DNA of 64,000 bases from GCF_054482595.1 NZ_CM137008.1, one strand, 5' to 3'; positions 779 through 34,648 are shown, numbered from the stretch's first letter. Made by a program: numbers and translations. Notes: generated by a model not told the origin, from the sequence alone.

Positions 779-1005
779 GGTTTCTCTTTCCTGTGGACCG
801 ATGCAAGATTTTCGGCCTGAAATGAGAAAACTTTATAGGTAGCGACTTGAAACTGGTTAATTTTACCTCACTTTTTTAATTTTTGTTCAAAAATACAATA
901 ACCACTTATTGATACATTTTCTTTTCTTATTTTTTTCACACGAATTGTATCTATTTTGAACGAAATATTTTATAGAGTGTGGAATTTTAAGAAAGGACAT
1001 CTGAA

Positions 1006-1395
1006 ATGTTAAACCGTGACTTCGATCATCTCTCAACGCTATTACATCTCTTTTTTGAACGTGAGGATATTTGCCAAAAGCTTAATATTATTGACCAAAA
1101 CAATATCACCGGTTGGGAAGTGTGGTTCCAGGTAGAGTTTGCTAATATGCTCTGCTCAACAGACCATGAATGGTGGCGTGAACAAGCACTTTCCTGTGAT
1201 ATGCGCAAAAAACCTGAGCGCCCGACACTACGCACAGATTTCTTACTACGTAAAAAAGGCTGGGCACAAGATAGCTATATCACGCTTGAAATAAAACAAA
1301 ACAGAGACGCGACCAGTTGTGTTAAAAATATGATCGCAGACTTAGAAAAAAGCGCAAAAATAAAACGTTCCGAACTCGATTTACGCAGTTTCTGA
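1006..1395 (+). CDS. Hypothetical protein (129 aa), AT-rich orphan ORF between tsr and btsT
   Basis: ORF-track ORF with a purine-rich SD-like element (aaagga) about 9 nt upstream of the ATG. Composition is AT-rich unlike the flanking core genes. No family recognised. Confidence 0.3.
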   Translation: MLNRDFDHLSTLLHLFFEREDICQKLNIIDQNNITGWEVWFQVEFANMLCSTDHEWWREQALSCDMRKKPERPTLRTDFLLRKKGWAQDSYITLEIKQNRDATSCVKNMIADLEKSAKIKRSELDLRSF

Positions 1396-1656
1396 ACCTT
1401 GGGTATCACCCCTATGATAGACAGGGAAAGGCTGGACTCTCTCATCGATTGCTATTTAGATGAGAAATTTTATCTTACTAAATCTCGTAAAAAACACGTT
1501 TTACTTAAAGAAATAAATAACACACCATATTGCTATATTGTTATTTAATATTTATAGCATGAATATAATTTTTAAATGAGTTACACAACCGAGGGCTAAA
1601 AATCGCTTCGGTTGTGATCATCATCACATAAATAACCTTCATAAACCTTGCTCAAA

Positions 1657-1705
1657 ACCGCTCAACCGCAAAACTGACCGCTTACGTCCCTAAAATAACC
1701 ACTCA
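1657..1705 (+). promoter_or_regulatory. Three direct repeats of ACC(G/A)CT(C/T)A (ACCGCTCA 1657-1664, ACCGCTTA 1677-1684, ACCACTCA 1698-1705), putative BtsR/YehT binding site in the btsT promoter
   Basis: Repeats read directly, with 12-nt and 13-nt spacers, about 140-180 bp upstream of btsT. The motif matches the published YehT direct-repeat consensus as I recall it. Confidence 0.55.
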
Positions 1706-1840
1706 GTTATTTACCTTACTTTACGCGCGCGTAACTCTGGCAGCATCACTGCAGGATAGCGGTCAATTTACCTCCTCAAACGCAACGCAAACCTAGAACG
1801 GCTTCGGCCAACTATTAATCAATACATGCCAGGTTTTACT

Positions 1841-5211: not shown

Positions 5212-5534
5212 TCACCTTAACCTACTCATACGAAGCGGACGAGGATAAAATCCTTTCATTTTCCGTTCGCTTCATTATTTTATTTTCTTTCCAATGCCCA
5301 TTCAAATTAAAAATATAATTCTGCCATAATTTCCTGAACACAGATGTAATTACATTGCCACCTCTCATACTTCCATATGACTAGTCGTCCTATTGGGGCG
5401 TGATAGATGTATTAATTTCCAAATATGCAAACATTCTGATACAGTCCCAAAAAGAAAATTATTACCAACCCAGACAATCAGCAAATAAATTAATAACAAT
5501 TGAATTATAATCAACACGAATACAAGAGATTAAC

Positions 5535-7385
5535 ATGGCAACAATAATCCCAACAATCAGTAGCTGCAACGATAAAATTACTGCCGGAGAGAAAAGGCTG
5601 GCAAGAATTCTGGAAAGAGGACTAGGCGAAGAGTGCTGCTGTTGGTATGACATTCCCACGGGTGATAAGCATCTTCACCCAGATTTTATGATACTTTCGC
5701 CAGAAAAAGGCATTATTTTTCTCGAGGTAAAAGATTGGTTTATTACAAAAATAAAAAAAGCCAACAAGTCTAATGTTTTGTATGAGACACAAAATGGCAT
5801 TCAATCTTTAAAGAATCCGATAGAACAAGTTAGGCGATATGCTTTCGAAGCTGTAAACCAGTTAAAAAAAGACCCCCTATTGTGCCAACAGGAAGATCGT
5901 TACAATGGCAATCTTCTTTTCCCCTATGGATATGGCGTCTACTTTAGTAATATTACACGAGAAGCATTAAATAATAAATTTACTCAAGAAGAGCTGCTCG
6001 GGATCTTCCCATCAGATCTTATCATCTGCAAAGACGAACTAAATGAATTCATGTCAAAAGGGGATGTTTCATCCAAAATACATTCGTTGATTAAATATGA
6101 CTTCAAATGTCATGCTACACAAGAACAGTTGAACAGGATTAGATGGCACTTATACCCCGATGTCAGAATAGAAAGGGAAAAGAGAAGTAAAAACTGTGAT
6201 GAATTTAGTGTCGATGCACCAACCATCATTTCTATCCTGGATACTCAACAGGAACAACTTGCCAGAAGTATGAGAGACGGCCACCGAATAATTCATGGTG
6301 TTGCAGGTTCAGGTAAGACATTGATCCTCTATCATCGCTGTCAGGAATTAGCGAAAAAAAATGACAGCGAAAAGCCAATACTTGTCATTTGCTACAATAT
6401 TACTTTAGCCAAAAAACTTCGGTCGATGTTCATCAATCATCCCTTTGAAGAGAAAATAAAGGTTAATAATTTTCATGCTTGGTGTTTCCAACAAATTAAA
6501 AAAAACAAGATCACCATTCCAGAAGGGGATAATATTTTTGAAAATATGGAGCAAGCGTTGACTGATGGTTTCAACACAGGAAAAATAAAACCAGAACAAT
6601 ACAGCGCTGTATTAATTGATGAAGGACATGATTTTAAGCCCGAATGGTTAAAAATCCTGGCAAAAATGACTGACTCTCAGGACGAGAATTTGCTATTTCT
6701 TTATGATGATGCTCAGTCAATTTATCAAAAAAAGAAAGCATTAGACTTTACACTGTCCAGCGTGGATATTAAAGCGACAGGACGCACAACTATTCTTAAT
6801 ATAAATTATAGAAACACACAACAAATTCTACACTTTGCCAGTTGCATTGCATTTAATTATCTTAATAGCCATATCGATAGTTCTTTAACCTATCATAAAC
6901 CTGCTGCGGGAGGAATGAATGGCGATTATCCCAAGCTTGAACATTTCGACACACAGGACGAAGAAATAGCAAGAGCAGTCAAATGGATTACAGAGCAAAA
7001 TGAACAAGGGATTCCGTGGTCTGAAATTGCTATACTTAGTCCTTCAACTCACATCCTTTCTAACTCTCTAAGTTCTGTACTTGAATCGAAAAATATCCCC
7101 TTTAATCTTATTGTAAGCTCTGCAGATAAAAAGTCCTGGACGCCAGAACAAGAGCGTATTTCTGTTATGCCATTACCCAGCAGCAAAGGACTTGAGTTTC
7201 ACTCAGTTGTCATTATTGATGCAGCGAGAACACGGGATAATAGTGATGATTTGAGTGAGGATATAAAGAGACTCTATGTAGGTTTTACCCGAGCACGTTG
7301 CAATCTCTTGGTAACCTTGCACGGTGAAGGTGCGTTAAATGAGCATCTACTAAGAACCTATAAGCAAAGCCCACAATATATGTAA
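5535..7385 (+). CDS. NERD-domain / SF1 (UvrD-like) helicase fusion protein, 616 aa; candidate single-gene nuclease-helicase defence protein
   Basis: N-terminal NERD-like motif (GEKRLARILERGL ... HPDFMILSPEKGIIFLEVKDW). Helicase motifs: Walker A HGVAGSGKT, motif II VLIDEGHDF, KGLEFHSVVI, and C-terminal LYVGFTRAR. The gene is strongly AT-rich. Confidence 0.7.
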   Translation: MATIIPTISSCNDKITAGEKRLARILERGLGEECCCWYDIPTGDKHLHPDFMILSPEKGIIFLEVKDWFITKIKKANKSNVLYETQNGIQSLKNPIEQVRRYAFEAVNQLKKDPLLCQQEDRYNGNLLFPYGYGVYFSNITREALNNKFTQEELLGIFPSDLIICKDELNEFMSKGDVSSKIHSLIKYDFKCHATQEQLNRIRWHLYPDVRIEREKRSKNCDEFSVDAPTIISILDTQQEQLARSMRDGHRIIHGVAGSGKTLILYHRCQELAKKNDSEKPILVICYNITLAKKLRSMFINHPFEEKIKVNNFHAWCFQQIKKNKITIPEGDNIFENMEQALTDGFNTGKIKPEQYSAVLIDEGHDFKPEWLKILAKMTDSQDENLLFLYDDAQSIYQKKKALDFTLSSVDIKATGRTTILNINYRNTQQILHFASCIAFNYLNSHIDSSLTYHKPAAGGMNGDYPKLEHFDTQDEEIARAVKWITEQNEQGIPWSEIAILSPSTHILSNSLSSVLESKNIPFNLIVSSADKKSWTPEQERISVMPLPSSKGLEFHSVVIIDAARTRDNSDDLSEDIKRLYVGFTRARCNLLVTLHGEGALNEHLLRTYKQSPQYM

Positions 7386-7403
7386 AAATGATAAATTATC
7401 TCC

Positions 7404-7437
7404 ATAACGCCCGGTAACGCTGTACCGGGCGTTATGA
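7404..7437 (+). terminator. Perfect 14-bp inverted repeat hairpin downstream of the NERD-helicase gene
   Basis: cataacgcccggta-acgctg-taccgggcgttatg read directly; no strong T-run follows. Confidence 0.4.
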
Positions 7438-7626
7438 ATGCATATCTAAGATATTAGTCACGCATGATAGCCGCCACCAAAAACACCATCATCTCCCTCG
7501 CCTCTTTGCGGTGATAAAAGCGTACCATTTTGCTGTTAAATTCCAGCGTTTTAGCCGCTGGAATTAACAAGATCAAACTTCCGGCAACGAAGATTCAGTT
7601 ATTACAAATAATTACTGGAAAAAGAG

Positions 7627-7824
7627 ATGAAAAGCGTGGTTGACAACACATCGAAATATCCTGACTGGAGTAAACGCGATGATATTAAAGCGAAACTGAA
7701 AGTTGAACTTATTCTGCTTCTACACAAGCATAAGTTCCCGCCAGTAGCGAATGATGATGTTTATATGGGTGTGCTGGCACAGGTAGAGAATTTTAAAGAA
7801 CATCATATGAGTGCTTTAAATTAA
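7627..7824 (+). pseudogene. 65-aa ORF, possible C-terminal remnant of a displaced restriction-system gene (hypothesis only)
   Basis: Short ORF upstream of symE in the position occupied by hsd genes in K-12. The motif KRDDIKAKLKVELILLLHKHKFPPV resembles my recollection of type I HsdR C-terminal tails. Unverified. Confidence 0.25.
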
Positions 7825-7943
7825 TCATGAAGGCTGGATACACTTTGTTATCCGGCCATTGTGAATTAATGTTAATTTTTCTTCCAAATCTTTCCAATAA
7901 CGCTTTTATTATTTTCTATTTTTAGCTGGACTTTCCCTGTATT

Positions 7944-7963
7944 TACTGATGATATATCCAGAT
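7944..7963 (+). promoter_or_regulatory. LexA (SOS) box-like CTG-N10-CAG element upstream of symE
   Basis: TACTGATGATATATCCAGAT read directly about 78 bp upstream of the symE ATG; symE is a known SOS-induced gene. Confidence 0.5.
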
Positions 7964-7984
7964 ATTTAGCGCGGTGCGGATGTG

Positions 7985-8065
7985 CGCCAACACACCCGCA
8001 CCGCTCATCACAATCACTATTTTCAAGGAATAGCAGTTATGACTGACACGCATTCTATTGCACAA
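7985..8065 (-). ncRNA. symR: Expected position of SymR antisense sRNA (type I antitoxin) overlapping the symE 5' end; approximate coordinates
   Basis: Placed from the known symE/SymR arrangement, not from detected promoter or terminator signals. A 9-bp inverted repeat GCGGTGCGG/CCGCACCGC lies at 7971-8004. Confidence 0.3.
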
Positions 8066-8380
8066 CCGTTCGAAGCAGAAGTCTCCCCGGCAAATAACCG
8101 TCAATTAACCGTGAGTTATGCGAGCCGCTACCCGGATTGCAGCCGTATTCCCGCCATCACCCTGAAAGGTCAGTGGCTGGAAGCCGCCGGTTTTGCCACC
8201 GGCACAGCGGTAGATGTCAAAGTGATGGAAGGCTGTATTGTCCTCACAGCCCAACCACCCGCCGCCGAAGAGAGCGAACTGATGCAGTCGCTGCGCCAGG
8301 TGTGCAAGCTGTCGGCGCGTAAACAAAAGCAGATACAGGAATTTATTGGGGTGATTGCGGGTAAACAAAAAGTTGCCTGA
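8039..8380 (+). CDS. symE: SOS-induced toxin SymE (type I toxin-antitoxin), 113 aa
   Basis: Internal ATG at 8039 of ORF 7982-8380 gives [33 protein letters not shown]..., matching SymE. Confidence 0.85.
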
Positions 8381-8388
8381 TACATTGA

Positions 8389-8419
8389 CCCGGTAGCACC
8401 AGTGCTACCGGGTATTATT
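8389..8419 (+). terminator. Hairpin plus T-rich tail between convergent symE and the GmrSD-like gene
   Basis: cccggtagca-ccag-tgctaccggg followed by tattatt, read directly. Confidence 0.5.
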
Positions 8420-8426
8420 CGCCGCG

Positions 8427-10520
8427 TTATACCAACGCGCTCTCCATCTGTTTTTCAAATGCCTGACGAATTAATCCCATAATGTAAGGAAGTTGTGCGA
8501 GGTCGCTGAAACAAATTTCCACATCACCATTGCCCCATCGCCCAACATTTGTCACATCTTTGGCAATACCTTTCGGATCGACCAGTTCATGAAACTGCAT
8601 ATTAAGCGACAATCGCAGTCGGCTTTTTTGCGGCACAACATCAACAAAATTCGTTTCAGCTTTAAACGCAATATATAGCTTCAATACTTCCTGCGTGATC
8701 CCTGCGTCCAGGCGCATAACTTCATCGCGAAGATGATCGAATAACACCCGGCTATGCGAACCATCAGCAAGAAAAGGATAATCACTCAGGCTGTAACTGG
8801 TTTTGTTTTCAGGCTGCCCCCGATAAACAGCTAAAACCTCTTCAGAAAGAGAAGGCGCTTGCCAGACCTGAATCGCGAGATCGGCCAGACGATCGGCTCG
8901 GGCGTGAATGGCGGCTTCATCCCATTTTTCGCACTGTCCAAGACCGATATTCAAATAGAGCGGGCTATGCTTAAAGCCGTCTTCAATATCGCGTTTTTCC
9001 GCGAAAGGTCTGTCACTGTAGCGGGAGTTATAGCGCGTTAATGTGAGATTCCCCAACGTATGCAACAGTTCTTTATGAATGCGTTGCCAGTCACTTCCCA
9101 GCTCTTCACGCCATTTAGCCGACAAATTTTCGTTCTGCGGCATAATATGCTCAATCGTAAACTCTTCCACGCGCTCTCTGCGTTTATCGTTTTCCAGTCG
9201 TCGTAACCAGTAGCTGCGACTACGGAAGTTATAGAGATCGCGAACTTTTAATTCCCGTTTAAATTCATCATCGTTGGGGAAACGACGATATGAAGGTAGA
9301 TTCAAAAAATGTACCTGAATACTTTCCAGATAATTTTCTTTATTAATAACTTTATAAAAAGTGGCAAATGTCTTGTTCAAAGAATTTGTCGGAATTGCAC
9401 ATACTGCACGGCGGAAAACATAAGATTCAATTAAACGAATTATGCTCAGAAAATCTTCGTGAGACAAAACGCCATTTTTATAGTCATGATAAAGCGCCAG
9501 TAAGAAAGGATACGCCACATCGACCTTTAACTCGCGCAAATCCTGAAAAGCCGTAGCAAGCGATTTGTCACTTTCTTTTCCCAATGCCATTGCACAGTAA
9601 TACTCCGCGTAGATATGAATATCTTCAACCAGCCGATCTACGCCTTTTTCAGCAACACTCTGGCTGCGGGCATGGAGTTTAAATGCCTCATAGACTTCAT
9701 CTGTCCGAGGGATCTCCCCCGTTTTTACCGTCAGATAATGACGCATAAAACTGTCAAAATATTCGCTGTAACCTTGCTGACCAAAGGCGACTTCCATTGG
9801 ACGCCAGTGATCTTCATACAATCGGGTTTGATGCTCTGGTTCGAGGCCCATCAGAATAAAATTGCGCACCAGATCGGCCTGACTTAACGCCTTACCGGTG
9901 GAGTTCATACTTTCAAAAATCAGTTGCGGATTATCCTGACCACGATTAAGCGCCACATCGACAATTAATAACTTTGCTAACCCACGACATAAGGGGATCA
10001 AGTCATCACCGAGTTTGGCAATTTGTTCATCAAAGAAAGTAAAGTTTTCCATTATTCGATGGGAATAGTTTTCTGGCATTGGTCTTTGTTTTATTAACGC
10101 CAGTAAACTGTCTTTATCAGTCTCGGTCAGCAGTAATTTAAAACCTTTCTCGCCGGACTCATAAGGATTGAGCAAATAATAATTACGCAATTTCATTGCC
10201 GAAAAGCCATCAAAAACTTCGTCTTCGCCAAGATGGCGCGATAAAGCCTCAATCAGCAACATTGCGGTCGTCAGCCGCTGCTGACCATCAATGACCAGCA
10301 ACGGAGAAATACCAGAAACCTGATACAATCCCTGCTCTATATAAACAACCGAACCGATAAAATGCGCTGATATATCGTCACGCTTTCCTGCACGAATGAT
10401 GTCGTCCCAAAGTTGCCGACATTGTTGTTCTGTCCATGAATAAGTCCGTTGATAAATGGGAATAACAAACTGCTGCGAACGTTTTAAAAAATCGAGTAAG
10501 CGAGCTTCTGTAGCTTTCAT
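8427..10520 (-). CDS. DUF262 + DUF1524 (GmrSD-family) putative Type IV modification-dependent restriction endonuclease, 697 aa
   Basis: N-terminal DUF262/ParB-like motifs IPIYQRTYSW and VIDGQQRLTT. C-terminal His-Me finger/DUF1524-like motifs FTIEHIMPQ, GNLTL and YNS. Confidence 0.7.
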   Translation of the reverse strand: MKATEARLLDFLKRSQQFVIPIYQRTYSWTEQQCRQLWDDIIRAGKRDDISAHFIGSVVYIEQGLYQVSGISPLLVIDGQQRLTTAMLLIEALSRHLGEDEVFDGFSAMKLRNYYLLNPYESGEKGFKLLLTETDKDSLLALIKQRPMPENYSHRIMENFTFFDEQIAKLGDDLIPLCRGLAKLLIVDVALNRGQDNPQLIFESMNSTGKALSQADLVRNFILMGLEPEHQTRLYEDHWRPMEVAFGQQGYSEYFDSFMRHYLTVKTGEIPRTDEVYEAFKLHARSQSVAEKGVDRLVEDIHIYAEYYCAMALGKESDKSLATAFQDLRELKVDVAYPFLLALYHDYKNGVLSHEDFLSIIRLIESYVFRRAVCAIPTNSLNKTFATFYKVINKENYLESIQVHFLNLPSYRRFPNDDEFKRELKVRDLYNFRSRSYWLRRLENDKRRERVEEFTIEHIMPQNENLSAKWREELGSDWQRIHKELLHTLGNLTLTRYNSRYSDRPFAEKRDIEDGFKHSPLYLNIGLGQCEKWDEAAIHARADRLADLAIQVWQAPSLSEEVLAVYRGQPENKTSYSLSDYPFLADGSHSRVLFDHLRDEVMRLDAGITQEVLKLYIAFKAETNFVDVVPQKSRLRLSLNMQFHELVDPKGIAKDVTNVGRWGNGDVEICFSDLAQLPYIMGLIRQAFEKQMESALV

Positions 10521-10616
10521 TCTGACGTCTTTCCGTGAAACGATGATTTCGCAATAATAACCACTTCCTTGTGGAGGTTATAGAGAAATCCTGTTTATCC
10601 GCGACGAACATACCCC

Positions 10617-10781
10617 TCACTCCACATCCTCCCTGCGTAACCCAATATCCCTCAACCGCTCATCACTCATCTGCTGTAACACTCGTCGGGTCTGCATTTG
10701 CCGCCGCCAACGCCTCACCGCCTGCCAGAGTTGCACAAGTCTGATAAACGGCGTTTTGGCTTTGTTTTCGTGAAATTCCAT
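10617..10781 (-). CDS. yjiS: DUF1127 small protein YjiS (54 aa), missed by the ORF track (below size cutoff)
   Basis: Minus-strand translation MEFHENKAKTPFIRLVQLWQAVRRWRRQMQTRRVLQQMSDERLRDIGLRREDVE, with GAGGAGG SD 5 nt upstream of the ATG at 10781. Confidence 0.7.
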   Translation of the reverse strand: MEFHENKAKTPFIRLVQLWQAVRRWRRQMQTRRVLQQMSDERLRDIGLRREDVE

Positions 10782-10957
10782 CTGCTGCCTCCTCATCTTT
10801 CAGAGGCTTCATCATCCGTCTTCTGGCAGTTCACAATACAGATGCAAATATTAGTTTTATTTAACATACAGACAGGTTAAAACAGCATCTGCATCCGGTT
10901 TTTTAGCCTCATCTGTACCGGTTTTTCTTTCTGTATGGTCCAAATAAGGAATACAGC

Positions 10958-12370
10958 ATGACGCGTTATCAACATCTGGCAACTCTGCTTGCCGAGCGGA
11001 TTGAGCAAGGGCTGTATCGTCACGGGGAGAAATTGCCGTCGGTGCGCAGCTTAAGTCAGGAGCACGGCGTCAGCATCAGCACCGTGCAGCAGGCGTATCA
11101 GACGCTGGAGACGATGAAGCTCATCACTCCGCAGCCGCGTTCGGGGTATTTTGTCGCACAACGTAAAGCCCAGCCGCCAGTGCCGCCGATGACGCGTCCG
11201 GTGCAGCGCCCGGTGGAAATTACCCAGTGGGATCAGGTACTGGATATGCTGGAGGCGCATAGCGACAGTTCCATTGTTCCGTTAAGCAAAAGCACGCCGG
11301 ATGTCGAAACGCCCAGCCTGAAACCGCTGTGGCGTGAGCTAAGCCGGGTGGTGCAGCATAATCTGCAAACCGTTCTCGGTTATGACTTGTTAGCCGGTCA
11401 GCGGGTATTGCGAGAGCAGATTGCCCGCCTGATGCTCGACAGCGGCTCGGTGGTCACCGCCGATGACATCATCATCACCAGCGGCTGCCATAACTCGATG
11501 TCGCTGGCGTTAATGGCGGTGTGTAAACCGGGCGATATTGTCGCGGTCGAATCTCCCTGTTATTACGGTTCGATGCAGATGCTGCGCGGCATGGGCGTGA
11601 AAGTGATTGAAATCCCAACCGATCCAGAAACTGGCATCAGCGTTGAAGCGCTGGAACTGGCGCTGGAACAGTGGCCGATTAAAGGCATCATTCTGGTGCC
11701 AAACTGTAATAATCCGCTGGGATTTATTATGCCGGACGCGCGCAAACGGGCCGTTCTCTCTCTCGCTCAGCGTCATGATATTGTGATTTTTGAAGATGAT
11801 GTCTACGGCGAACTGGCAACGGAGTATCCGCGCCCGCGGACCATTCATTCCTGGGATATCGACGGGCGAGTGCTGTTGTGCAGCTCGTTCAGTAAAAGTA
11901 TTGCTCCAGGCCTGCGCGTGGGTTGGGTCGCACCGGGGCGTTATCACGATAAACTGCTGCATATGAAATACGCCATCAGCAGCTTTAATGTGCCGTCCAC
12001 GCAAATGGCGGCGGCAACGTTTGTGCTGGAAGGTCACTATCATCGCCATATCCGGCGGATGCGGCAGATCTATCAGCGCAATTTGGCGCTTTATACCTGC
12101 TGGATACGGGAATATTTTCCCTGCGAAATCTGTATTACGCGCCCGAAAGGCGGATTTTTACTGTGGATAGAATTGCCTGAACAGGTCGATATGGTCTGCG
12201 TCGCGCGGCAGCTGTACCGCATGAAAATCCAGGTGGCGGCAGGCTCGATTTTCTCGGCTTCCGGCAAATACCGTAATTGTCTGCGCATCAACTGCGCTTT
12301 GCCGCTCAGCGAAACCTATCGCGAAGCACTGAAGCAAATTGGCGAGGCCGTGTATCGGGCAATAGAATAA
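10958..12370 (+). CDS. yjiR: MocR/GntR-family transcriptional regulator with PLP-dependent aminotransferase-like domain, 470 aa
   Basis: N-terminal GntR-type winged HTH (LPSVRSLSQEHGVSISTVQQAYQTLE) followed by an aminotransferase class I/II-like domain. Confidence 0.85.
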   Translation: MTRYQHLATLLAERIEQGLYRHGEKLPSVRSLSQEHGVSISTVQQAYQTLETMKLITPQPRSGYFVAQRKAQPPVPPMTRPVQRPVEITQWDQVLDMLEAHSDSSIVPLSKSTPDVETPSLKPLWRELSRVVQHNLQTVLGYDLLAGQRVLREQIARLMLDSGSVVTADDIIITSGCHNSMSLALMAVCKPGDIVAVESPCYYGSMQMLRGMGVKVIEIPTDPETGISVEALELALEQWPIKGIILVPNCNNPLGFIMPDARKRAVLSLAQRHDIVIFEDDVYGELATEYPRPRTIHSWDIDGRVLLCSSFSKSIAPGLRVGWVAPGRYHDKLLHMKYAISSFNVPSTQMAAATFVLEGHYHRHIRRMRQIYQRNLALYTCWIREYFPCEICITRPKGGFLLWIELPEQVDMVCVARQLYRMKIQVAAGSIFSASGKYRNCLRINCALPLSETYREALKQIGEAVYRAIE

Positions 12371-12487
12371 TTTCGAATTAGTGGCGAGGCCCCTGATTTC
12401 CTCTCACGAATCGCCTGTGACTCGTTTTATCTTTGCAGGGGCATCGCCACGTTCCAGCATGGCTTAGGCAAAGTGTGCTTTGTTCAT

Positions 12488-12518
12488 ACCGGATGCGGCG
12501 TGAACGCCTTATCCGGCT
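12488..12518. repeat. REP element (ccggatgcggcgtgaacgccttatccgg)
   Basis: Imperfect palindrome of the canonical E. coli REP type; a near-identical copy is at 36431-36465. Confidence 0.6.
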
Positions 12519-12554
12519 TACAAATCGCGCAAATTCAATAGATTGCAGAGGTAA

Positions 12555-12585
12555 TGTAGGTCTGATAAGCGTAGCACATCAGGCA
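12555..12585. repeat. REP element (tgtaggtctgataagcgtagcacatcaggca), second member of a BIME-like pair
   Basis: REP-type palindrome adjacent to the previous one between convergent yjiR and rpnD. Confidence 0.5.
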
Positions 12586-12611
12586 GCTTTGCGTTTGTCA
12601 TCAGTCTCTGA

Positions 12612-13556
12612 TTAGTACTCGATCCATGGATCGCGCTTGCTTTCAGGCAAGGGTTGCTCTAATGCCTGCATTTGCTCTGCCGAAAGTCCAGTATATCGTT
12701 GTATCCATTCAGGATCCGCACCGTTCTGCAAAAGCAATCTAAGGAGGCGTTGTTCCCCTTCTTCTTTCCCCTTTTCCATCCCTAACAGCCATCCATCATT
12801 ATGAATTCGCTCTGCAATCGTCATTATTCGCTCCCTGTGTTGTGGCATTCGACGGGTAAGTTCACTGATAAACTCATTAAAACGCGCTTCATCGCCAGTC
12901 AGTAAAATGTAATTTAACAGCGCGGTTATCTGGCTGTCATTAGCGCACCCTGTAACCAGTAATATTACCAGTTGATCAATAAGCCCCATTAGATCGCGCT
13001 GGCGAATATGCTTTTGGATCAACTCCAACAGGGCGACTCTGCGGTGCTGCACAATCTCGTCGTCTGGCACGACAGTGACATCCACCAGCGGGAACGCTGC
13101 AGTATAAACTTTCCGTGCAGTAGTCGGGTCGGCAAATTCGTCCAGCCAGCACAGGGACCAGGGATAAGGACTACGGCTACCGTGATAAAACAGCATCGGG
13201 ATGACCAGCGGTAGCAACCGGCGTTTATCATGCTCTATATGGCGCTGCATCACTGCCATGGTATAGCGCATCAGGCGAAAGGCCATATGAATATCCTCAC
13301 GGCTCTGATGTTCAATCACCACATAGATATAGCCATCGCCTTCCCGGGTCTTTACCGACCACAGAATATCGGAGTGTAGCGCCCGCAATTTTTCATCGAC
13401 AAAGCTGGCGGATTCCAGTTTTAAGCTGTCGAGATCGCACAGTTCACGTAAATCTTTGGGTAAGTGGATCTCCATAAAATCCCGCGCGGTGTCAGGGTGC
13501 ATGAGAAAAGATTTAAATAATGCGTCATGCGGCGTGCTGGTCGTGAAGTTTGTCAT
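12612..13556 (-). CDS. rpnD: Rpn-family recombination-promoting nuclease (YhgA-like PD-(D/E)XK), 314 aa, apparently intact
   Basis: [36 protein letters not shown]... is typical of the Rpn/YhgA family; single uninterrupted ORF. Confidence 0.75.
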
Positions 13557-14022
13557 GGCGATCCGTCACCTGTTGATAAGATGGCCCGACTTTAGCGACT
13601 AACAAAACCATTCTCACCCGGCAATTTCCCGTTCCCCGAGGCGCTTTCCAGGCTATTTTTGTTCGTCTGCAAACGATACATTTTTCCGGAAACAGGCTCG
13701 CGTTTTACATTTCCTGTACCCGGCAGATATTCCCCTTTCCACCGCGCTCTTTTGATTAACCGCAAATTTTAATTACACTTAAGGTGTATATTTTCTATGC
13801 AACCCATCAATTCAAGAGGTGTAATGTACTGATGACTATTTGTAATCGTTATACATTCTGACCCGAAGTCAGAAGGTATTTCTCTGTCTGTGTGTTCACA
13901 GGCAGTGTGGTTGATTACATGAAATTCAGTACATTTGTCCTTCTCGCCTGCCTTTCGTCATTACCGACGGTATTGAATTTCGTTTTCCCCGTTGGGGTTC
14001 TCCGGACAAGGAGTTGTTTGTT

Positions 14023-15255
14023 ATGCCACGTTTTTTTGCCCGCCATGCCGCCACGCTGTTTTTCCCGATGGCGTTGATTTTGTATGACTTTGCCGCCTAT
14101 CTTTCGACGGACCTGATCCAGCCAGGGATCATTAATGTGGTCCGTGATTTTAATGCCGATGTCAGTCTGGCCCCGGCTGCCGTCAGTCTCTATCTCGCTG
14201 GAGGCATGGCATTGCAGTGGCTGCTGGGGCCGCTTTCCGACAGGATTGGCCGCAGGCCAGTGCTGATTACCGGGGCGCTCATTTTTACCCTTGCCTGCGC
14301 CGCGACAATGTTCACAACGTCTATGACACAGTTTCTTATCGCGCGTGCAATTCAGGGCACCAGTATCTGTTTTATTGCTACCGTTGGTTATGTCACGGTG
14401 CAGGAGGCGTTCGGACAGACAAAAGGGATCAAGTTGATGGCGATTATCACCTCCATCGTACTGATTGCGCCGATTATTGGCCCGCTTTCCGGCGCAGCTC
14501 TGATGCACTTTGTGCACTGGAAAGTCCTTTTTGCCATCATTGCGGTTATGGGTTTTATCTCATTTGTTGGCTTACTGCTGGCGATGCCAGAGACGGTGAA
14601 GCGCGGCGCGGTTCCATTTAGCGCCAAAAGCGTCTTGCGCGATTTTCGTAATGTCTTTTGCAATCGGCTGTTCCTCTTTGGCGCAGCAACCATCTCTTTA
14701 AGCTATATCCCAATGATGAGTTGGGTGGCTGTCTCGCCGGTGATCCTGATTGACGCAGGCGGCTTAACGACCTCGCAGTTCGCCTGGACACAGGTTCCGG
14801 TGTTCGGCGCGGTGATTGTCGCGAATGCCATCGTGGCGCGTTTCGTTAAAGATCCGACCGAACCGCGCTTTATCTGGCGTGCCGTACCCATTCAACTGGT
14901 TGGCCTCGCGCTGTTGATTATCGGCAATCTGCTGTCACCGCACGTCTGGCTGTGGTCGGTGCTGGGCACCAGTTTGTATGCTTTCGGGATTGGTTTGATC
15001 TTCCCGACCTTATTCCGCTTTACGCTTTTTTCCAATAACTTACCGAAAGGGACCGTCTCCGCATCGCTGAATATGGTGATCCTGATGGTGATGTCTGTCT
15101 CGGTCGAAATCGGCCGCTGGCTGTGGTTTAACGGCGGTCGCTTGCCGTTTCATCTGTTAGCCGTCGTGGCGGGCGTTATCGTCGTTTTCACCCTGGCAGG
15201 ATTGCTCAATCGCGTGCGCCAACATCAGGCTGCCGAGCTGGCGGAGGAGCGGTGA
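14023..15255 (+). CDS. mdtM: MFS multidrug efflux transporter MdtM, 410 aa
   Basis: 12-TM MFS-like protein. Start is taken at the ATG at 14023, preceded by GGAG; the ORF track used an upstream TTG. Confidence 0.9.
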
Positions 15256-15295
15256 TTTTTGCGCGATCTTGCCGTCAGGCTCTATTCTTAACGTT

Positions 15296-16576
15296 ATGAA
15301 TAAACTCATTGAACTCAGACGCGCCAAAATGTTGGCGCTCTCTTTACTGCTTATCGCCGCTGCTACCTTTGTCGTTACGCTGTTTTTGCCGCCCAATTTT
15401 TGGGTGAGCGGTGTGAAGGCGATTGCCGAAGCAGCGATGGTCGGCGCGCTGGCGGACTGGTTTGCGGTGGTGGCGCTGTTTCGCCGCGTGCCGATTCCGA
15501 TCATTTCTCGTCATACAGCGATTATCCCGCGTAATAAAGACCGGATTGGCGAAAATCTCGGCCAGTTCGTGCAGGAAAAATTTCTTGATACTCAATCCCT
15601 GGTGGCATTGATTCGACGCCACGAACCGGCGTTGTTGATTGGCAACTGGTTTAGTCAGCCAGAAAACGCCCGCCGCGTTGGTCAGCATCTGTTGCAGATC
15701 ATGAGCGGTTTTCTCGAATTAACTGATGATGCGCGTATTCAGCGCCTGCTTAAGCGCGCGGTCCATCGGGCGATTGATAAGGTCGATCTTTCCGGCACCA
15801 GTGCGTTGATGCTGGAGAGTATGACCAAAAACGATCGTCATCAGGTGCTGCTGGATACGCTGATCGCACAGTTGATCGCCCTTCTCCAGCGCGATAAATC
15901 GCGCAAGTTTATCGCCCAGCAAATTGTTCGCTGGCTGGAGAGTGAGCATCCACTGAAAGCCAAAATTCTCCCCACCGAATGGCTGGGCGAACATAGCGCG
16001 GAGTTGGTTTCTGACGCGGTGAATTCTTTGCTTGATGATATCAGCCGCGATCGTGCGCATCAGATCCGCCATGCGTTTGATCGCGCCACTTTTGCCCTGA
16101 TCGACAAGCTGAAAAACGATCCGGAAATGGCAGCGCGAGCCGATGCCGTAAAAAGTTATCTGAAAGAAGATGAAGCTTTTAACCGCTATCTCAGTGAATT
16201 GTGGGGGGATTTACGGGAATGGCTGAAAGCGGATATCGACAGTGAAGATTCTCGTGTGAAAGAACGTATCGCGCGGGCGGGTCAATGGTTTGGCGAAACG
16301 TTAATTGCCGATGATGCCTTGCGGGCGTCGTTAAATGGTCATCTGGAACAAGCCGCGCACCGCGTCGCGCCTGAGTTTTCCGCATTCCTGACGCGCCACA
16401 TCAGCGATACGGTAAAAAGCTGGGATGCCCGGGATATGTCGCGGCAAATAGAGTTAAATATCGGCAAAGATCTGCAGTTTATTCGTGTCAACGGTACGCT
16501 GGTTGGCGGTTGTATTGGGCTAATTTTATATTTGCTGTCGCAGCTCCCGGCCTTGTTCCCCCTCGGCAATTTTTAG
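15296..16576 (+). CDS. yjiN: DUF445 inner membrane protein YjiN, 426 aa
   Basis: ORF 15269-16576; start taken at the internal ATG giving [22 protein letters not shown]... Confidence 0.8.
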
Positions 16577-16691: not shown

Positions 16692-18616
<1,925 letters not shown>

Positions 18617-18620
<4 letters not shown>

Positions 18621-18883
18621 AAGAGTTTTTATTTTTATTTCACTCCACGGTCGGCGTCATACAAACCCGCAAGGCATTGCAGGCAGCGGGCATGACTTTT
18701 CGCGTCAGCGATATTCCCCGTGATTTACGCGGCGGCTGCGGGTTATGCATTTGGCTGACCTGTCCCCCCGGCGAGGAAATACAATGGGTGATCCCTGGGC
18801 AAACCGAAGCGATATATTGCCAGCAGGGCAGCGACTGGCAGTGCGTGGTGCATTACGATGCAGAAGCGTCAACCAGGCAATAG
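18617..18883 (+). CDS. Small conserved hypothetical protein (88 aa), translationally coupled to yjiL
   Basis: ATG overlaps the yjiL stop (ATGA), suggesting an operon. The DUF3343-like assignment is tentative. Confidence 0.5.
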
Positions 18884-30288: not shown

Positions 30289-30972
30289 ATGACACAACAA
30301 GGGGATGCTGTAGCCGGGGAGCTGGCGACAGAAAAAGTGGGCATTAAAGGGTATCTGGCTTTTTTTCTCACCATAATCTTTTTTTCCGGTGTTTTTTCCG
30401 GAACAGACAGCTGGTGGCGCGTTTTTGATTTTTCCGTTCTGAACGGATCGTTTGGGCAACTGCCTGGTGCGAACGGAGCCACCACCTCATTTCGCGGCGC
30501 GGGTGGTGCGGGGGCTAAAGATGGCTTTCTCTTTGCGCTGGAGCTGGCACCGTCAGTCATTCTCTCTCTGGGGATTATTTCAATTACCGATGGTCTTGGT
30601 GGATTACGCGCCGCGCAGCAGTTAATGACACCTGTGCTAAAACCGTTGTTGGGTATTCCAGGGATCTGTTCGCTGGCGCTGATCGCTAACTTGCAAAACA
30701 CTGATGCCGCCGCCGGTATGACCAAAGAGCTGGCGCAGGAAGGTGAAATTACCGAACGCGATAAAGTGATTTTCGCCGCATATCAAACCAGCGGTAGCGC
30801 CATCATCACCAACTACTTCTCTTCCGGCGTCGCGGTGTTCGCCTTTCTGGGTACGTCCGTAATCGTACCTTTAGCCGTCATCCTGGTGTTTAAATTTGTC
30901 GGAGCCAACATTTTGCGCGTCTGGCTTAACTTCGAAGAACGTCGCAACCCAACGCAAGGAGCGCAAGCATGA
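30289..30972 (+). CDS. yjiH: Inner membrane protein YjiH (nucleoside-recognition-domain family), ~227 aa
   Basis: ORF 30277-30972; start probably at the ATG at 30289 (MTQQGDAV...), preceded by GGGGA. Confidence 0.8.
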   Translation: MTQQGDAVAGELATEKVGIKGYLAFFLTIIFFSGVFSGTDSWWRVFDFSVLNGSFGQLPGANGATTSFRGAGGAGAKDGFLFALELAPSVILSLGIISITDGLGGLRAAQQLMTPVLKPLLGIPGICSLALIANLQNTDAAAGMTKELAQEGEITERDKVIFAAYQTSGSAIITNYFSSGVAVFAFLGTSVIVPLAVILVFKFVGANILRVWLNFEERRNPTQGAQA

Positions 30973-31430
30973 CAACTCAGGTCCGCAAAAACGTCATGGA
31001 TATGTTTATCGATGGCGCGCGCCGTGGCTTTACTATCGCCACGACCAACCTGCTGCCAAACGTGGTGATGGCGTTTGTCATCATTCAGGCGCTGAAAATA
31101 ACCGGCCTGCTCGACTGGGTGGGGCATATCTGTGAACCCGTAATGGCGCTGTGGGGATTACCCGGTGAAGCGGCAACCGTCCTTTTAGCCGCATTAATGA
31201 GTATGGGCGGCGCAGTCGGTGTTGCCGCCAGTCTGGCAACCGCTGGCGCATTAACCGGTCACGATGTCACCGTTTTACTGCCCGCGATGTATTTAATGGG
31301 CAACCCGGTGCAAAATGTCGGTCGCTGCCTGGGGACAGCCGAAGTGAATGCCAAATATTACCCGCATATCATTACGGTCTGCGTGATTAACGCATTGCTG
31401 TCGATCTGGGTTATGCAGCTTATTGTTTAA
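30969..31430 (+). CDS. yjiG: Inner membrane protein YjiG (SpmB-like), 153 aa
   Basis: Overlaps the yjiH stop by 4 bp (ATGA), indicating translational coupling. Confidence 0.8.
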   Translation: MTTQVRKNVMDMFIDGARRGFTIATTNLLPNVVMAFVIIQALKITGLLDWVGHICEPVMALWGLPGEAATVLLAALMSMGGAVGVAASLATAGALTGHDVTVLLPAMYLMGNPVQNVGRCLGTAEVNAKYYPHIITVCVINALLSIWVMQLIV

Positions 31431-31442
31431 CAAGGAGTTACC

Positions 31443-32615
31443 ATGATTGATTATACCGCAGCCGGTTTTACCCTGCTGCAGGGAGCGCATTTGTATGCGC
31501 CGGAAGATCGGGGAATTTGCGATGTCCTCGTCGCTAACGGCAAAATTATCGCCGTTGCCAGCAATATCCCTTCTGACATTGTACCGGACTGCACGGTTGT
31601 CGATCTCAGCGGGCAGATCCTCTGCCCAGGTTTTATTGATCAACACGTCCATTTGATTGGCGGTGGCGGCGAAGCAGGTCCCACGACGCGCACGCCGGAA
31701 GTGGCGCTAAGTCGCCTGACGGAAGCGGGCGTCACGTCAGTGGTTGGTCTGCTGGGCACCGACTCTATCTCTCGCCACCCGGAATCCCTGCTCGCCAAGA
31801 CCCGTGCGCTCAATGAAGAAGGCATCAGCGCCTGGATGCTGACCGGCGCTTATCATGTCCCTTCCCGCACTATTACGGGTTCCGTGGAAAAAGACGTGGC
31901 GATTATCGATCGTGTGATTGGTGTGAAATGCGCCATCTCTGATCACCGTTCTGCCGCACCGGACGTTTATCACCTGGCTAATATGGCGGCAGAATCCCGC
32001 GTTGGCGGTTTGCTCGGCAGTAAACCTGGCGTCACCGTGTTCCACATGGGCGACAGTAAAAAGGCGTTACAGCCTATCTATGACCTGCTGGAAAACTGCG
32101 ATGTGCCGATCAGCAAGCTGCTGCCGACCCACGTTAACCGCAACGTACCGTTGTTTGAGCAGGCGCTGGAGTTCGCGCGCAAAGGCGGCACCATCGATAT
32201 CACCAGCAGCATTGACGAACCGGTCGCCCCTGCCGAAGGTATTGCCCGCGCCGTTCAGGCGGGTATTCCGCTGGCACGCGTCACCCTCAGCTCCGACGGC
32301 AACGGTAGCCAGCCGTTCTTCGATGATGAAGGGAATTTAACCCATATCGGCGTTGCAGGTTTTGAAACGTTGCTGGAAACCGTGCAGGTGCTGGTTAAAG
32401 ACTATGATTTCAGTATCAGCGATGCCCTGCGCCCGCTCACCAGTAGCGTAGCCGGTTTCCTTAACCTGAGCGGGAAAGGCGAAATTCTGCCAGGCAATGA
32501 CGCAGACTTACTGGTCATGACGCCAGAATTGCGCATTGAGCAGGTATACGCTCGCGGCAAACTGATGGTCAAAGACGGCAAAGCCTGCGTGAAAGGAACG
32601 TTTGAAACGGCATAA
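31443..32615 (+). CDS. iadA: Isoaspartyl dipeptidase IadA, 390 aa
   Basis: Amidohydrolase-superfamily metal-binding HxH motif (FIDQHVHLIGGGGEAG); sequence recognised as IadA. Confidence 0.9.
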   Translation: MIDYTAAGFTLLQGAHLYAPEDRGICDVLVANGKIIAVASNIPSDIVPDCTVVDLSGQILCPGFIDQHVHLIGGGGEAGPTTRTPEVALSRLTEAGVTSVVGLLGTDSISRHPESLLAKTRALNEEGISAWMLTGAYHVPSRTITGSVEKDVAIIDRVIGVKCAISDHRSAAPDVYHLANMAAESRVGGLLGSKPGVTVFHMGDSKKALQPIYDLLENCDVPISKLLPTHVNRNVPLFEQALEFARKGGTIDITSSIDEPVAPAEGIARAVQAGIPLARVTLSSDGNGSQPFFDDEGNLTHIGVAGFETLLETVQVLVKDYDFSISDALRPLTSSVAGFLNLSGKGEILPGNDADLLVMTPELRIEQVYARGKLMVKDGKACVKGTFETA

Positions 32616-32620
32616 ACGGT

Positions 32621-32667
32621 TGTCAGCCGCCCTAATGGACGTAGAATGCCCGCAAGGGCGGCTGACA
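32621..32667. other. 13-bp perfect inverted repeat (tgtcagccgccct ... agggcggctgaca) between iadA and hypT; possible terminator
   Basis: Read directly; the 21-nt loop is larger than in a typical intrinsic terminator. Confidence 0.4.
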
Positions 32668-32679
32668 GAGTAAAACGTA

Positions 32680-33591
32680 ATGGATGACTGTGGTGCGGTT
32701 TTGCATAATATTGAAACTAAATGGCTTTATGATTTTCTGACCCTGGAAAAATGCCGCAATTTTTCCCAGGCGGCAGTTAGTCGCAACGTCTCGCAACCGG
32801 CATTCAGCCGCCGCATCCGTGCACTGGAACAGGCGATTGGCGTTGAATTGTTTAACCGCCAGGTGACGCCGCTGCAACTCTCAGAACAAGGGAAAATCTT
32901 CCATTCGCAGATCCGCCATCTGTTGCAACAGTTAGAAAGTAACCTTGCAGAGCTGCGTGGCGGCAGCGATTACGCGCAACGTAAAATCAAGATAGCCGCT
33001 GCACACTCTCTTTCCCTCGGTCTGTTACCGTCCATTATCAGCCAGATGCCGCCGCTCTTTACCTGGGCGATTGAAGCTATTGATGTCGATGAAGCAGTCG
33101 ATAAACTGCGCGAAGGGCAAAGTGACTGTATTTTTTCCTTTCACGACGAAGATTTGCTGGAAGCGCCGTTTGACCACATTCGCTTATTTGAATCTCAATT
33201 GTTCCCCGTTTGCGCCAGTGACGAACACGGAGAAGCACTTTTTAACCTCGCGCAGCCACACTTTCCGTTACTGAATTACAGCCGCAACTCCTACATGGGG
33301 CGATTGATTAATCGCACCCTGACGCGCCACAGTGAGTTAAGTTTCAGCACCTTTTTTGTCTCTTCGATGAGCGAGCTTTTAAAGCAGGTTGCCCTCGACG
33401 GCTGTGGGATTGCCTGGCTGCCGGAATACGCCATCCAACAAGAAATTCGCAGCGGGCAGCTCGTTGTACTGAATCGGGACGAACTGGTGATCCCGATTCA
33501 GGCCTATGCATACCGGATGAATACCCGCATGAATCCCGTTGCCGAACGCTTCTGGCGTGAACTGCGCGAGCTGGAGATTGTGCTTAGCTGA
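32680..33591 (+). CDS. hypT: LysR-family transcriptional regulator HypT (YjiE), 303 aa
   Basis: N-terminal LysR-type HTH ([29 protein letters not shown]); sequence recognised. Confidence 0.85.
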
Positions 33592-33976
33592 CATTCTCAA
33601 GCGTCGCACTGCGCCAACCGCCATTATCCCAGACCAGATCAAACGTTAGCGGTTCATCGTCGTGGTACAGCATTATCTCAAGGCTGATCGCCAGCGTGTG
33701 GCAGTACGCTTCTTTCAAATTAACCTGCAACGCCGCAATCCGTGGCTCATGAAATAACAGTGCAGAACGCAGCTGACGGCAATACCAGCTCTGGAGATGT
33801 TTGTCGCTCTGGTTATGCAGTTGCCACTCGGGCATGCCTGAAACAAGTAATGACGGTAATGCCGAATGAGGAGAATTAAAAAGTGTGAGGAGATCGCTGC
33901 ATACCGATTTACGCAGCGATGACGTTTTATTGCCTGAAATTTCAGGTAAAACAGCCTGAAGTGATTGGCGCATCAT
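33584..33976 (-). CDS. iraD: Anti-adaptor protein IraD (RssB inhibitor), 130 aa
   Basis: Translation from the internal ATG: [23 protein letters not shown]...; its 3' end overlaps the hypT 3' end by 8 bp (convergent). Confidence 0.8.
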
Positions 33977-34648
33977 TTTGCGCACTCCTGACGTTTAGCA
34001 ACATATGCGGCTTGCCCTGAACACCGGGCACCACTGTATTGATGCTCATTTTCCATAGCCATTCCCTTTTGTTCATTACATCCATGTCAGTCTGAGACAG
34101 GCCTGAATCCTGTCAGCAAAGTATAAAACCTTACTTGCCTATGAATATCTACTGACTTTTCAGGAAAAAAGTCATGATTTGATAAAAATCATCAAACTCA
34201 AAAAAAAACCGCTAGTATATTCTGAATATTCCGAATAGTTACGTAGATGAAAATACTTGTCACCGCTGCTACTTAATTCCGGTGGGAAATTATTTATTTC
34301 CGCATAATCATCTATGTATTATTTGAAACAATTAGTTTGTAAATAATATAAATTAATAACATATCAAATACATCAAAAATACCATTCACAGGCATTATTA
34401 ATATAGACCTCAACATAGCAACATCAAATTCCAATTAGTAATAAGATATGCTTTTAAATTGCATGCAAATAATTTTAAATGAGCGTTTTTTGATACTTTA
34501 GAGTGTTTCCCACCCTTTAATATCACTGTGTAGAGTTGATATCACTACAACAGAAACATGCATGTCATTTGTTTACTTCTCTTTTTACTACAGAAAAATT
34601 TATCTATTTTTCTAAACATCAGTGAAATACTCATAAAAGGTAACTATT

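Follow-up and report, generated by a model that had tools for sequence, protein, structure and literature searches.

Experiments have demonstrated that integron cassettes can hold single-gene antiphage systems built on Mrr/PD-(D/E)xK nuclease domains, and those named Epona, Divona and Damona in Vibrio cholerae carry extra domains (holin, DUF4365, crr6, DUF6602; bioRxiv 10.1101/2024.07.02.601686). Here we analyzed a stretch of 64,000 nucleotides of Escherichia coli DNA (NZ_CM137008.1 in GCF_054482595.1), which is called the window below and from whose first letter all positions are counted. The element in question is a pseudogene at 1006-1548, between tsr and btsT, whose intact form encodes a standalone protein of 180 amino acids (aa) with a predicted PD-(D/E)xK nuclease fold. 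An earlier note made from the sequence had described the 5' part of this gene (1006-1395) as an AT-rich orphan open reading frame (ORF). No sequence relationship between the 180-aa protein and Epona, Divona or Damona was demonstrated, and the extra domains of those systems are lacking in it. The PADLOC model for Shedu (SduA) was not matched, and in the published integron-cassette defence screens no described system was tied to the family.

The closest solved folds were all PD-(D/E)xK structures, namely the nuclease domain of Wolbachia CinB (7esz_A), R.SwaI (5tgq_A), BglI (1dmu_A) and OkrAI (3odh_A). Sequence identity to any solved structure was 7-12%, no Pfam or NCBIfam model reached its threshold, and two N-terminal helices (residues 2-17 and 20-31) and a signature of GWExWxQxE, D112 and K115 were specific to the family. 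Unlike type II restriction enzymes, the family gene has no cognate methyltransferase, which argues against a classical enzyme of that type; of the 25 families listed as most frequent in the two neighbours on either side at 40 loci, none was a methyltransferase family. Compared with type IV (modification-dependent) enzymes such as Mrr and McrC, which in E. coli map beside the locus in the Immigration Control Region (ICR), the protein lacks a GTPase partner, a match to the Pfam model Mrr_cat and any domain recognisable as binding DNA or reading its modification, and the gene is separated from the ICR by the core genes btsT, yjiX and yjiA.

The best recurrent profile match was TnsA-like_N (PF08722), which covers residues 56-108 including D78 and E95-x-K97. 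It was the only Pfam model to respond to the protein itself, at 14.2 bits against a cut-off of 26.5 bits. Among 95 family members the recurrent weak Pfam matches were all to PD-(D/E)xK models (TnsA_N in 8, PDDEXK_9 in 3, VRR_NUC in 2); the eight TnsA-like_N matches (E<=1, the best with E 0.0054) were weak, and UniRef labels one Pseudomonas member as TnsA-like. In contrast to TnsA, the protein lacks the TnsA C-terminal domain and has neither TnsB-E nor any other transposition partner nearby.

A 180-codon gene interrupted by a nonsense mutation

The frame at issue and its two sequence changes are as follows.

1006-1548, plus strand: pseudogene of 180 codons with one internal stop, from a PD-(D/E)xK nuclease-fold family that has no name (continuous frame, PGAP annotation, intact orthologues)
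1006-1395, plus strand: truncated 129-codon ORF of the earlier note (ORF listing, translation)
993-997, plus strand: Shine-Dalgarno-like AAGGA, 8 nt before the ATG (read from the sequence)
1393-1395, plus strand: nonsense mutation TGG to TGA at codon 130, W130* (alignment with strain 116)
1282-1284, plus strand: codon 93, ACG (Thr) against GCG (Ala), A93T, two residues before E95 and linked to the stop allele (alignment, allele probes)

The ATG-initiated ORF of 129 codons that the earlier note had reported was found in the ORF listing of the window, together with the Shine-Dalgarno sequence that the note had thought plausible; an A/G-rich AAGGA or AAAGGA is kept at the same place in the aligned upstream regions of Citrobacter, Enterobacter and Phytobacter. 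The intergenic region, given as roughly 1 kb, spans about 1.06 kb (781-1840), and the atypical composition also held true, with a G+C (GC) content of 38% in the ORF and 35% in 837-1655 against mostly 52-61% in 200-bp windows of btsT. However, the ORF is not a gene in itself. Translation of 1006-1551 showed that the same frame runs on past the TGA at 1393-1395 for 50 further codons to a TAA at 1546-1548, a stretch that is also called as a separate same-frame ORF of 49 aa (1399-1548). The real unit is thus a 180-codon gene with one internal stop, of which the 129-codon ORF is the 5' 72%. PGAP labels 1006-1548 as 'hypothetical protein, internal stop' in EC1515, an E. coli urinary isolate from Taiwan whose spacer is 100% identical to that of the window, and also marks the gene 'internal stop' in strain GF66.1.

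The intact 180-aa gene (WP_000934391.1) is present in cattle strain 116, and Ec-RL2-1X, ET350 and O55:H7 DEC5B (the last with the version WP_000934392.1) are intact as well. The window ORF differs from the intact allele only by TGG to TGA at codon 130 and GCG to ACG at codon 93. To survey the population, two probes of 61 bp, with one of these single-nucleotide polymorphisms in the middle of each, were compared with 5,426 complete E. coli genomes. The gene was carried by 356-359 of them (about 7%), mostly O157:H7 or O55:H7, and it was intact in essentially all sampled genomes of these two serotypes. Exactly 25 of 356 carriers matched the stop-allele probe at 100%; the remaining 331 had at least one mismatch, and those checked were intact. 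The Thr93-allele probe was likewise matched at 100% by exactly 25 genomes, and the strains visible in both lists agreed (EC1515, 88COLEC, GF66.1). The matching counts and shared strains indicate a single, fairly recent loss-of-function haplotype that spread, and its carriers came from human, poultry, duck, pig, mink and river-water sources.

Residue 130, an aromatic/hydrophobic position of the core, is an invariant tryptophan in close relatives, and in the wide family it is W in 64 and F in 16 of 95 members (80/95 W or F). In the predicted model W130 lies in the middle of a core strand (residues 125-136), so that the stop deletes the second half of this strand (beta4) together with the helix that comes after it and the last two strands of the protein. 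The truncated product would keep the catalytic residues but not a complete domain, and is very probably inactive. We therefore regard the feature in the window as an ordinary, young pseudogene that RefSeq has already flagged, and we assign it with high confidence to the PD-(D/E)xK-fold family described next. For the window itself this amounts to a correction, in that the 'orphan ORF' points to no new functional element in the strain.

Family, conservation and selection

Contrary to the term orphan, relatives were numerous. A word-indexed search gave 39 relatives of 180 aa; those in Citrobacter, Enterobacter and Serratia fonticola were 73-80% identical, those in Pseudomonas and metagenomes about 40-46%. 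An exhaustive HMMER scan of a library of 1.84 billion representative proteins gave 191 clusters (at 50% identity) with E<=1e-3, of which 104 had E<=1e-10; almost all were 170-195 aa long. The members are nearly all standalone proteins of about 180 aa, and apart from fragments the library contained no natural 129-aa form. The earlier note had named a lack of conservation of the frame in related strains as one result that would speak against it; the 180-aa frame was kept in E. coli, Citrobacter, Enterobacter and Serratia, and well outside these genera.

All database names were 'hypothetical protein' and no relative had a precomputed Pfam domain. NCBIfam gave nothing for the protein, PHROGs nothing meaningful, and a PDB sequence search returned only transthyretin and Potempin at E about 1, whether the query was the protein or the profile of the family. 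The family is an unnamed, uncharacterised branch of the well-known PD-(D/E)xK superfamily. Multi-domain relatives were considered as functional clues and set aside: a 920-aa protein was a low-complexity tandem-repeat artefact, a 1367-aa relative with many short matched stretches looks like a repeat artefact too, and relatives of 240-295 aa, which have no Pfam domains, look like over-extended gene calls.

Between genera, 85-105 synonymous differences were counted on about 115 synonymous sites (our own estimate), which is saturation, and the nonsynonymous distance (dN) was 0.10-0.15. In the sole pair for which the synonymous distance (dS) was computable, dN/dS was 0.05. Since dN is low while synonymous sites are saturated, the 180-aa frame is under strong purifying selection.

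Predicted fold and putative active site

An AlphaFold2 model computed on an alignment of the 95 members had a mean local confidence (pLDDT) of 93.4 and a global confidence (pTM) of 0.89. It comprises the two N-terminal helices, a helix at 38-50 and a hairpin (55-58, 61-64), followed by strands 74-76, 79-82 and 90-98, a helix at 102-116, strand 125-136, a helix at 140-150 and strands 166-169 and 175-179. The predicted core has the alpha-beta-beta-beta-alpha-beta order of the restriction-endonuclease-like fold, and the PD-(D/E)xK signature was recognised as an acidic residue on a core helix, an aspartate at the start of the second core strand and (D/E)-x-K on the third. The putative active-site codons, with conservation counted in the 95-member alignment, are listed here.

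1135-1137, plus strand: E44, invariant putative active-site acid on helix 38-50 (95/95)
1237-1239, plus strand: D78, the 'D' of PD-(D/E)xK, directly before strand 79-82 (94/95)
1288-1296, plus strand: E95-I96-K97, the '(D/E)xK' on strand 90-98 (E 93/95, K 94/95)

All of E44, D78, E95 and K97 are still encoded in the window copy. The earlier note had seen in TDFLL ... TLEIK a weak mark of a nuclease fold; these motifs contain D78 and E95-x-K97, and their conservation together with the high-confidence model bears the suggestion out. Conserved residues specific to this family are D5, F16, G36-W37-E38, W40, Q42, E59, D112, K115 and G133 (the last in 93/95). Foldseek searches against the PDB and viral libraries returned PD-(D/E)xK nucleases. 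The intact protein is likely to be an active nuclease.

Mobility and decay of homologues

The neighbours of 48 loci from Gamma- and Betaproteobacteria and Campylobacterota were surveyed with crude gene calls and all-against-all BLASTP. Across these loci there was no conserved neighbour beyond lineage-local synteny, which consisted of tsr/btsT in 6-7 Enterobacteriaceae and an upstream aconitase gene in 5 Acinetobacter. The window copy has tsr and btsT as its neighbours, and the order tsr-gene-btsT also occurs in Citrobacter portucalensis, C. braakii, two other Citrobacter, an Enterobacter and Phytobacter. Clustering of the neighbours gave no recurrent gene at position -1 or +1 that could be a toxin-antitoxin or toxin-immunity partner, which argues against such a pair. 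Transposase domains were sporadic (IS110 in 2 of 149 neighbours), and the Serratia fonticola copy lies in an integrase-bearing island, adjoining hsdR.

Copies in Vibrio, Photobacterium, Colwellia and an Alteromonadaceae genome have attC-like repeats of 86-130 bp on both sides, which recur every 0.3-1 kb, start with ...ATAACAA and end with GCGTTAG/T (ends of the RYYYAAC...GTTRRRY type). Judged by repeat structure, the homologues at loci L034, L035, L043, L044, L046 and L031 are integron cassettes. The repeats fold as long imperfect hairpins in Colwellia and Alteromonadaceae (z -4.7 in L034, -3.3 in L035); those of Vibrio fold no better than shuffles. These attC-bracketed arrays in marine Gammaproteobacteria have the character of chromosomal integrons and indicate that the family moves as a one-gene cassette and must work alone. 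Several Vibrio copies are on contigs of 0.5-2 kb, as expected where repeats break assemblies.

Decay was also recurrent: among 51 species-level genomes, eight held a copy that had been broken independently, by a frameshift in four, a nonsense mutation in two, an insertion in one and a 3' truncation in one. The W130* allele of E. coli is one more case of this general tendency of the family. The repeat arrays and the disrupted copies were located as follows.

attC-like repeat arrays: L034 5054-11951; L044 136-4514; L043 460-582 and 1153-1274; L035 5902-5975 and 6565-6639; L031 5240-9898
Disrupted copies: frameshift in L022, L040, L045 and L059; nonsense in L048 and L055; insertion in L061 (6001-6708); 3' truncation in L060

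In Moritella a stop replaces the codon of the conserved E59. In Affinibrenneria the gene is split just before the ExK motif by an insertion of about 170 bp, which may be a small mobile element. The Pseudomonas fontis homologue (L006 7232-7774, minus strand) is divergently paired with an unannotated ORF of 180 aa (8001-8567), and that locus lies beside large unannotated proteins of 1296 aa and 563 aa and a pentapeptide-repeat protein.

Proposed function of the intact protein

The intact protein would be a divalent-metal-dependent phosphodiesterase acting on nucleic acid, with E44, D78 and E95 as its metal ligands and K97 as the residue that activates water, on the pattern of other PD-(D/E)xK enzymes. 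It would act alone, without a methyltransferase, antitoxin or ATPase partner, as a self-sufficient accessory nuclease. Its targets would be DNA that is foreign, modified or abnormal, and the one gene would form a minimal module of defence or against mobile elements. Such an accessory nuclease fits best because of the patchy, strain-variable distribution, the cassette mobility, the AT-richness, the frequent decay alongside purifying selection and the proximity of hsd, GmrSD and DUF262 genes. By analogy, a role in defence or against mobile elements is a possibility that we put forward tentatively. For the account as a whole, namely that the window holds a copy of a standalone 180-aa nuclease-fold gene inactivated by W130* on an A93T background, with the proposed role included, we estimate a probability of about 0.6.

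Several observations weigh against this account, in particular against its functional part. The two genes on either side of the homologues are mostly housekeeping genes, and defence genes among them are sporadic (one SIR2-HerA locus and two mad3/mad8 matches in 149 neighbours), so that the usual 'defence island' signal is weak. PADLOC-DB v2 gave no defence model, just a marginal match to oMTase (orphan methyltransferase; E 9e-4, 16 bits). Foldseek likeness to solved structures was low (TM about 0.3-0.4, none at E<=1e-3), hence no subfamily and no substrate can be assigned, and RNA-cleaving members of the superfamily (cap-snatching endonucleases) were among the matches. The protein is 180 aa long with no obvious extra domain for reading DNA modification or sequence, and the nuclease and defence roles of the family are putative. 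Upstream of the gene, a promoter/terminator scan found no convincing plus-strand sigma-70 promoter, and the spacer there is not conserved between genera except for the ribosome-binding site. The counterpart of the intact gene in O157:H7 Sakai is, by gene numbering, probably ECs5314; as to its expression, this gene is unmentioned in two transcriptome/proteome papers (PMC5098033 and PMC2241611), in the covered parts of their supplements and in the other main texts searched, whereas ECs5313 (yjiY) and ECs5315 (tsr) are mentioned, which is a weak negative. As to inactivation, the allele may be leaky rather than null, because readthrough of UGA by tRNA-Trp could restore wild-type protein at a low level. 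UGA is the leakiest stop codon of E. coli and is misread by tRNA-Trp.

The oMTase match aligns residues 108-173 (window 1327-1524) with positions 182-246 of a 444-position profile, and may reflect a nuclease-like segment fused in the family of that profile.

A bolder proposal, which we consider doubtful, is that WP_000934391.1 is the founder of a new minimal single-gene immune module, a partner-free PD-(D/E)xK nuclease of about 180 aa directed against phages or invading DNA. Such a module would spread as an integron cassette in marine bacteria and would have settled in the tsr-btsT spacer by the ICR, the W130* lineage being a natural loss-of-function or leaky UGA-readthrough allele. If it is an autonomous defence or anti-mobile-element nuclease, it would be one of the smallest restriction-like modules known. 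The family of unnamed standalone nuclease-fold proteins, which is selected, cassette-mobile and repeatedly lost, is in any case more interesting than the window copy.

Alternative explanations

Two alternatives concern the ORF in the window. That the frame is open merely by chance, in a spacer that is AT-rich and codes for nothing, would agree with the low-GC intergenic setting and with a promoter/terminator scan that called no strong element of either kind. At 38% GC, 129 codons in a row without a stop have a chance of about 1e-4 per start by our own arithmetic, and homology with E values down to 1e-118 and the contrast of dN and dS place the frame beyond chance; the length of 180 aa is kept across bacterial classes and the predicted fold is confident, so this explanation is refuted for practical purposes. 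It is highly improbable, too, that the 129-aa ORF is itself a functional orphan gene for a mini nuclease domain, even though the ATG, the ribosome-binding site and the four putative active-site residues are kept and the allele persists in 25 genomes (human, poultry, pig, mink and river-water isolates). The stop inside strand 125-136 removes about 28% of a single compact domain, G133 included, and those 25 carriers are one haplotype that looks like a single recent event. The 50 codons downstream remain in frame and unchanged, as in a young pseudogene, which agrees with the PGAP pseudogene call, and natural family members of 129 aa were fragments only.

The other alternatives assign the intact protein a different task. 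A structure-specific nuclease of DNA repair or recombination (of the Hjc, RecU, Vsr or MutH type), acting on branched or damaged host DNA, is unlikely, since presence in 7% of E. coli, integron cassettes, AT-richness and frequent independent pseudogenes are atypical of repair genes and the gene is not linked to a repair operon. It appears quite unlikely that the protein is a toxic effector, for example an RNase or DNase of abortive infection or an orphan toxin, that stays silent until triggered: no immunity gene, antitoxin or sensor is conserved next to the gene, and 180 aa leave no room for a sensor domain or one that binds signalling nucleotides. A selfish homing-type endonuclease would cut empty sites and have its gene copied in by repair. 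This would account for a solitary insert between conserved genes and for invasion followed by decay and loss; Escherichia, Citrobacter, Enterobacter and Phytobacter all have the gene at one site, between tsr and btsT, its distribution is patchy, its degeneration recurrent, and no transposase or terminal repeats flank the window copy. However, the mobility that is visible is attC recombination of integrons, insertion sites differ completely between lineages, and strong purifying selection across genera argues for a benefit to the host. The K-12 spacer is moreover not significantly related to the occupied allele, so no similarity of target sites could be shown, and we consider homing very unlikely.

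Anatomy of the tsr-btsT spacer

The window opens inside tsr (minus strand, ATG at 778), which is followed by the 1,060-bp spacer, by btsT (PGAP start at 1841) and then by yjiX and yjiA. The following elements were located in the spacer.

809-835, minus strand: tsr promoter-like TAAAGTTT-N11-GCCGAAAA, conserved in all genera aligned
837-1610, no strand: gene-bearing segment of about 35% GC, absent from K-12-type genomes (spacer alignment)
1584-1616, plus strand: stable RNA hairpin without a U tract, located 36 nt past the TAA and confined to the E. coli allele (z -3.9)
1613-1628, no strand: CRP-like box TGTGATCATCATCACA of the btsT regulatory region (TGTGAT-N6-ATCACA conserved)
1657-1708, plus strand: BtsR (YehT) binding region of the btsT/yjiY promoter, ACCGCTCA ... 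ACCGCTTA (oligonucleotide match)

The K-12-type spacer has 375 bp (L002 3001-3375) and shows high identity to the window only in its first 56 and last 185 bp. On the tsr side, the variable segment starts directly upstream of TAAAGTTT-N11-GCCGAAAA, which we take to fit the sigma-28 consensus and which, judged from its sequence, is probably the tsr promoter. The 200-bp windows upstream of the ORF fall to 27-30% GC. On the btsT side, the first element common to all alleles is TGTGAT-N6-ATCACA, presumably a CRP site by its consensus, which is kept in the spacers of K-12, Citrobacter, Enterobacter and Phytobacter. The boxes ACCGCTCA and ACCGCTTA (1657-1684) are conserved across alleles and retained downstream of the pseudogene, and PMC4847170 prints an oligonucleotide, 'yjiY YehT bs', that agrees with the BtsR binding region of the window. 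With shared flanks on both sides, the gene module (about 837-1610) lies exactly in the gap that separates the control regions of tsr and btsT, two divergent core genes. The 45 bp at 1611-1655 are heavily diverged from K-12 and 1656-1840 is about 97% identical, which suggests an old recombination breakpoint near 1656, inside the btsT regulatory region.

No intrinsic terminator was called near the gene in the promoter/terminator scan, and an Rfam scan of 700-1900 gave no RNA family match. The hairpin at 1584-1616 has an 11-bp stem (-22.1 kcal/mol for a 95-nt region), overlaps the start of the CRP-like box and was not found in the Citrobacter spacers. Within 700-1900, attC features were not found around the window copy, and the search for flanking direct or inverted terminal repeats of a transposon- or cassette-like kind gave only short AT-rich chance matches. 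That the K-12 spacer might be a deletion relic was considered and rejected, since its specific 134 bp aligned with window 837-1660 no better than shuffles.

In other strains the 4-hydroxyphenylacetate (hpa) catabolic cluster occupies the same site (L065 3404-4309), so that E. coli is polymorphic here, with three states of the spacer: the 375-bp K-12 type, the hpa-occupied type and the type with the nuclease-fold gene. After yjiA, window 5280-15610 is a variant of the ICR that contains a DUF262 protein, an EcoAI-family type I hsdR/M/S system, symE, a GmrSD-domain restriction endonuclease and a DUF262 pseudogene, and only the three core genes btsT, yjiX and yjiA stand between the pseudogene and this hsd/GmrSD region. 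If the defence or anti-mobile-element role holds, the tsr-btsT spacer would be a small hotspot of accessory genes beside the classical hsd/mcr/mrr region. The natural allele series of E. coli (intact, W130*, empty K-12 type and hpa-occupied) makes functional testing cheap.

Further accessory-looking genes occur in the window at 17702-18646, 24279-26528 and 29097-34337, namely a recombination-promoting nuclease of the Rpn family, a pentapeptide-repeat protein of 749 aa and the inverse autotransporter iatD. The GC content of the whole window is 46.5%, which is below our expectation for E. coli.

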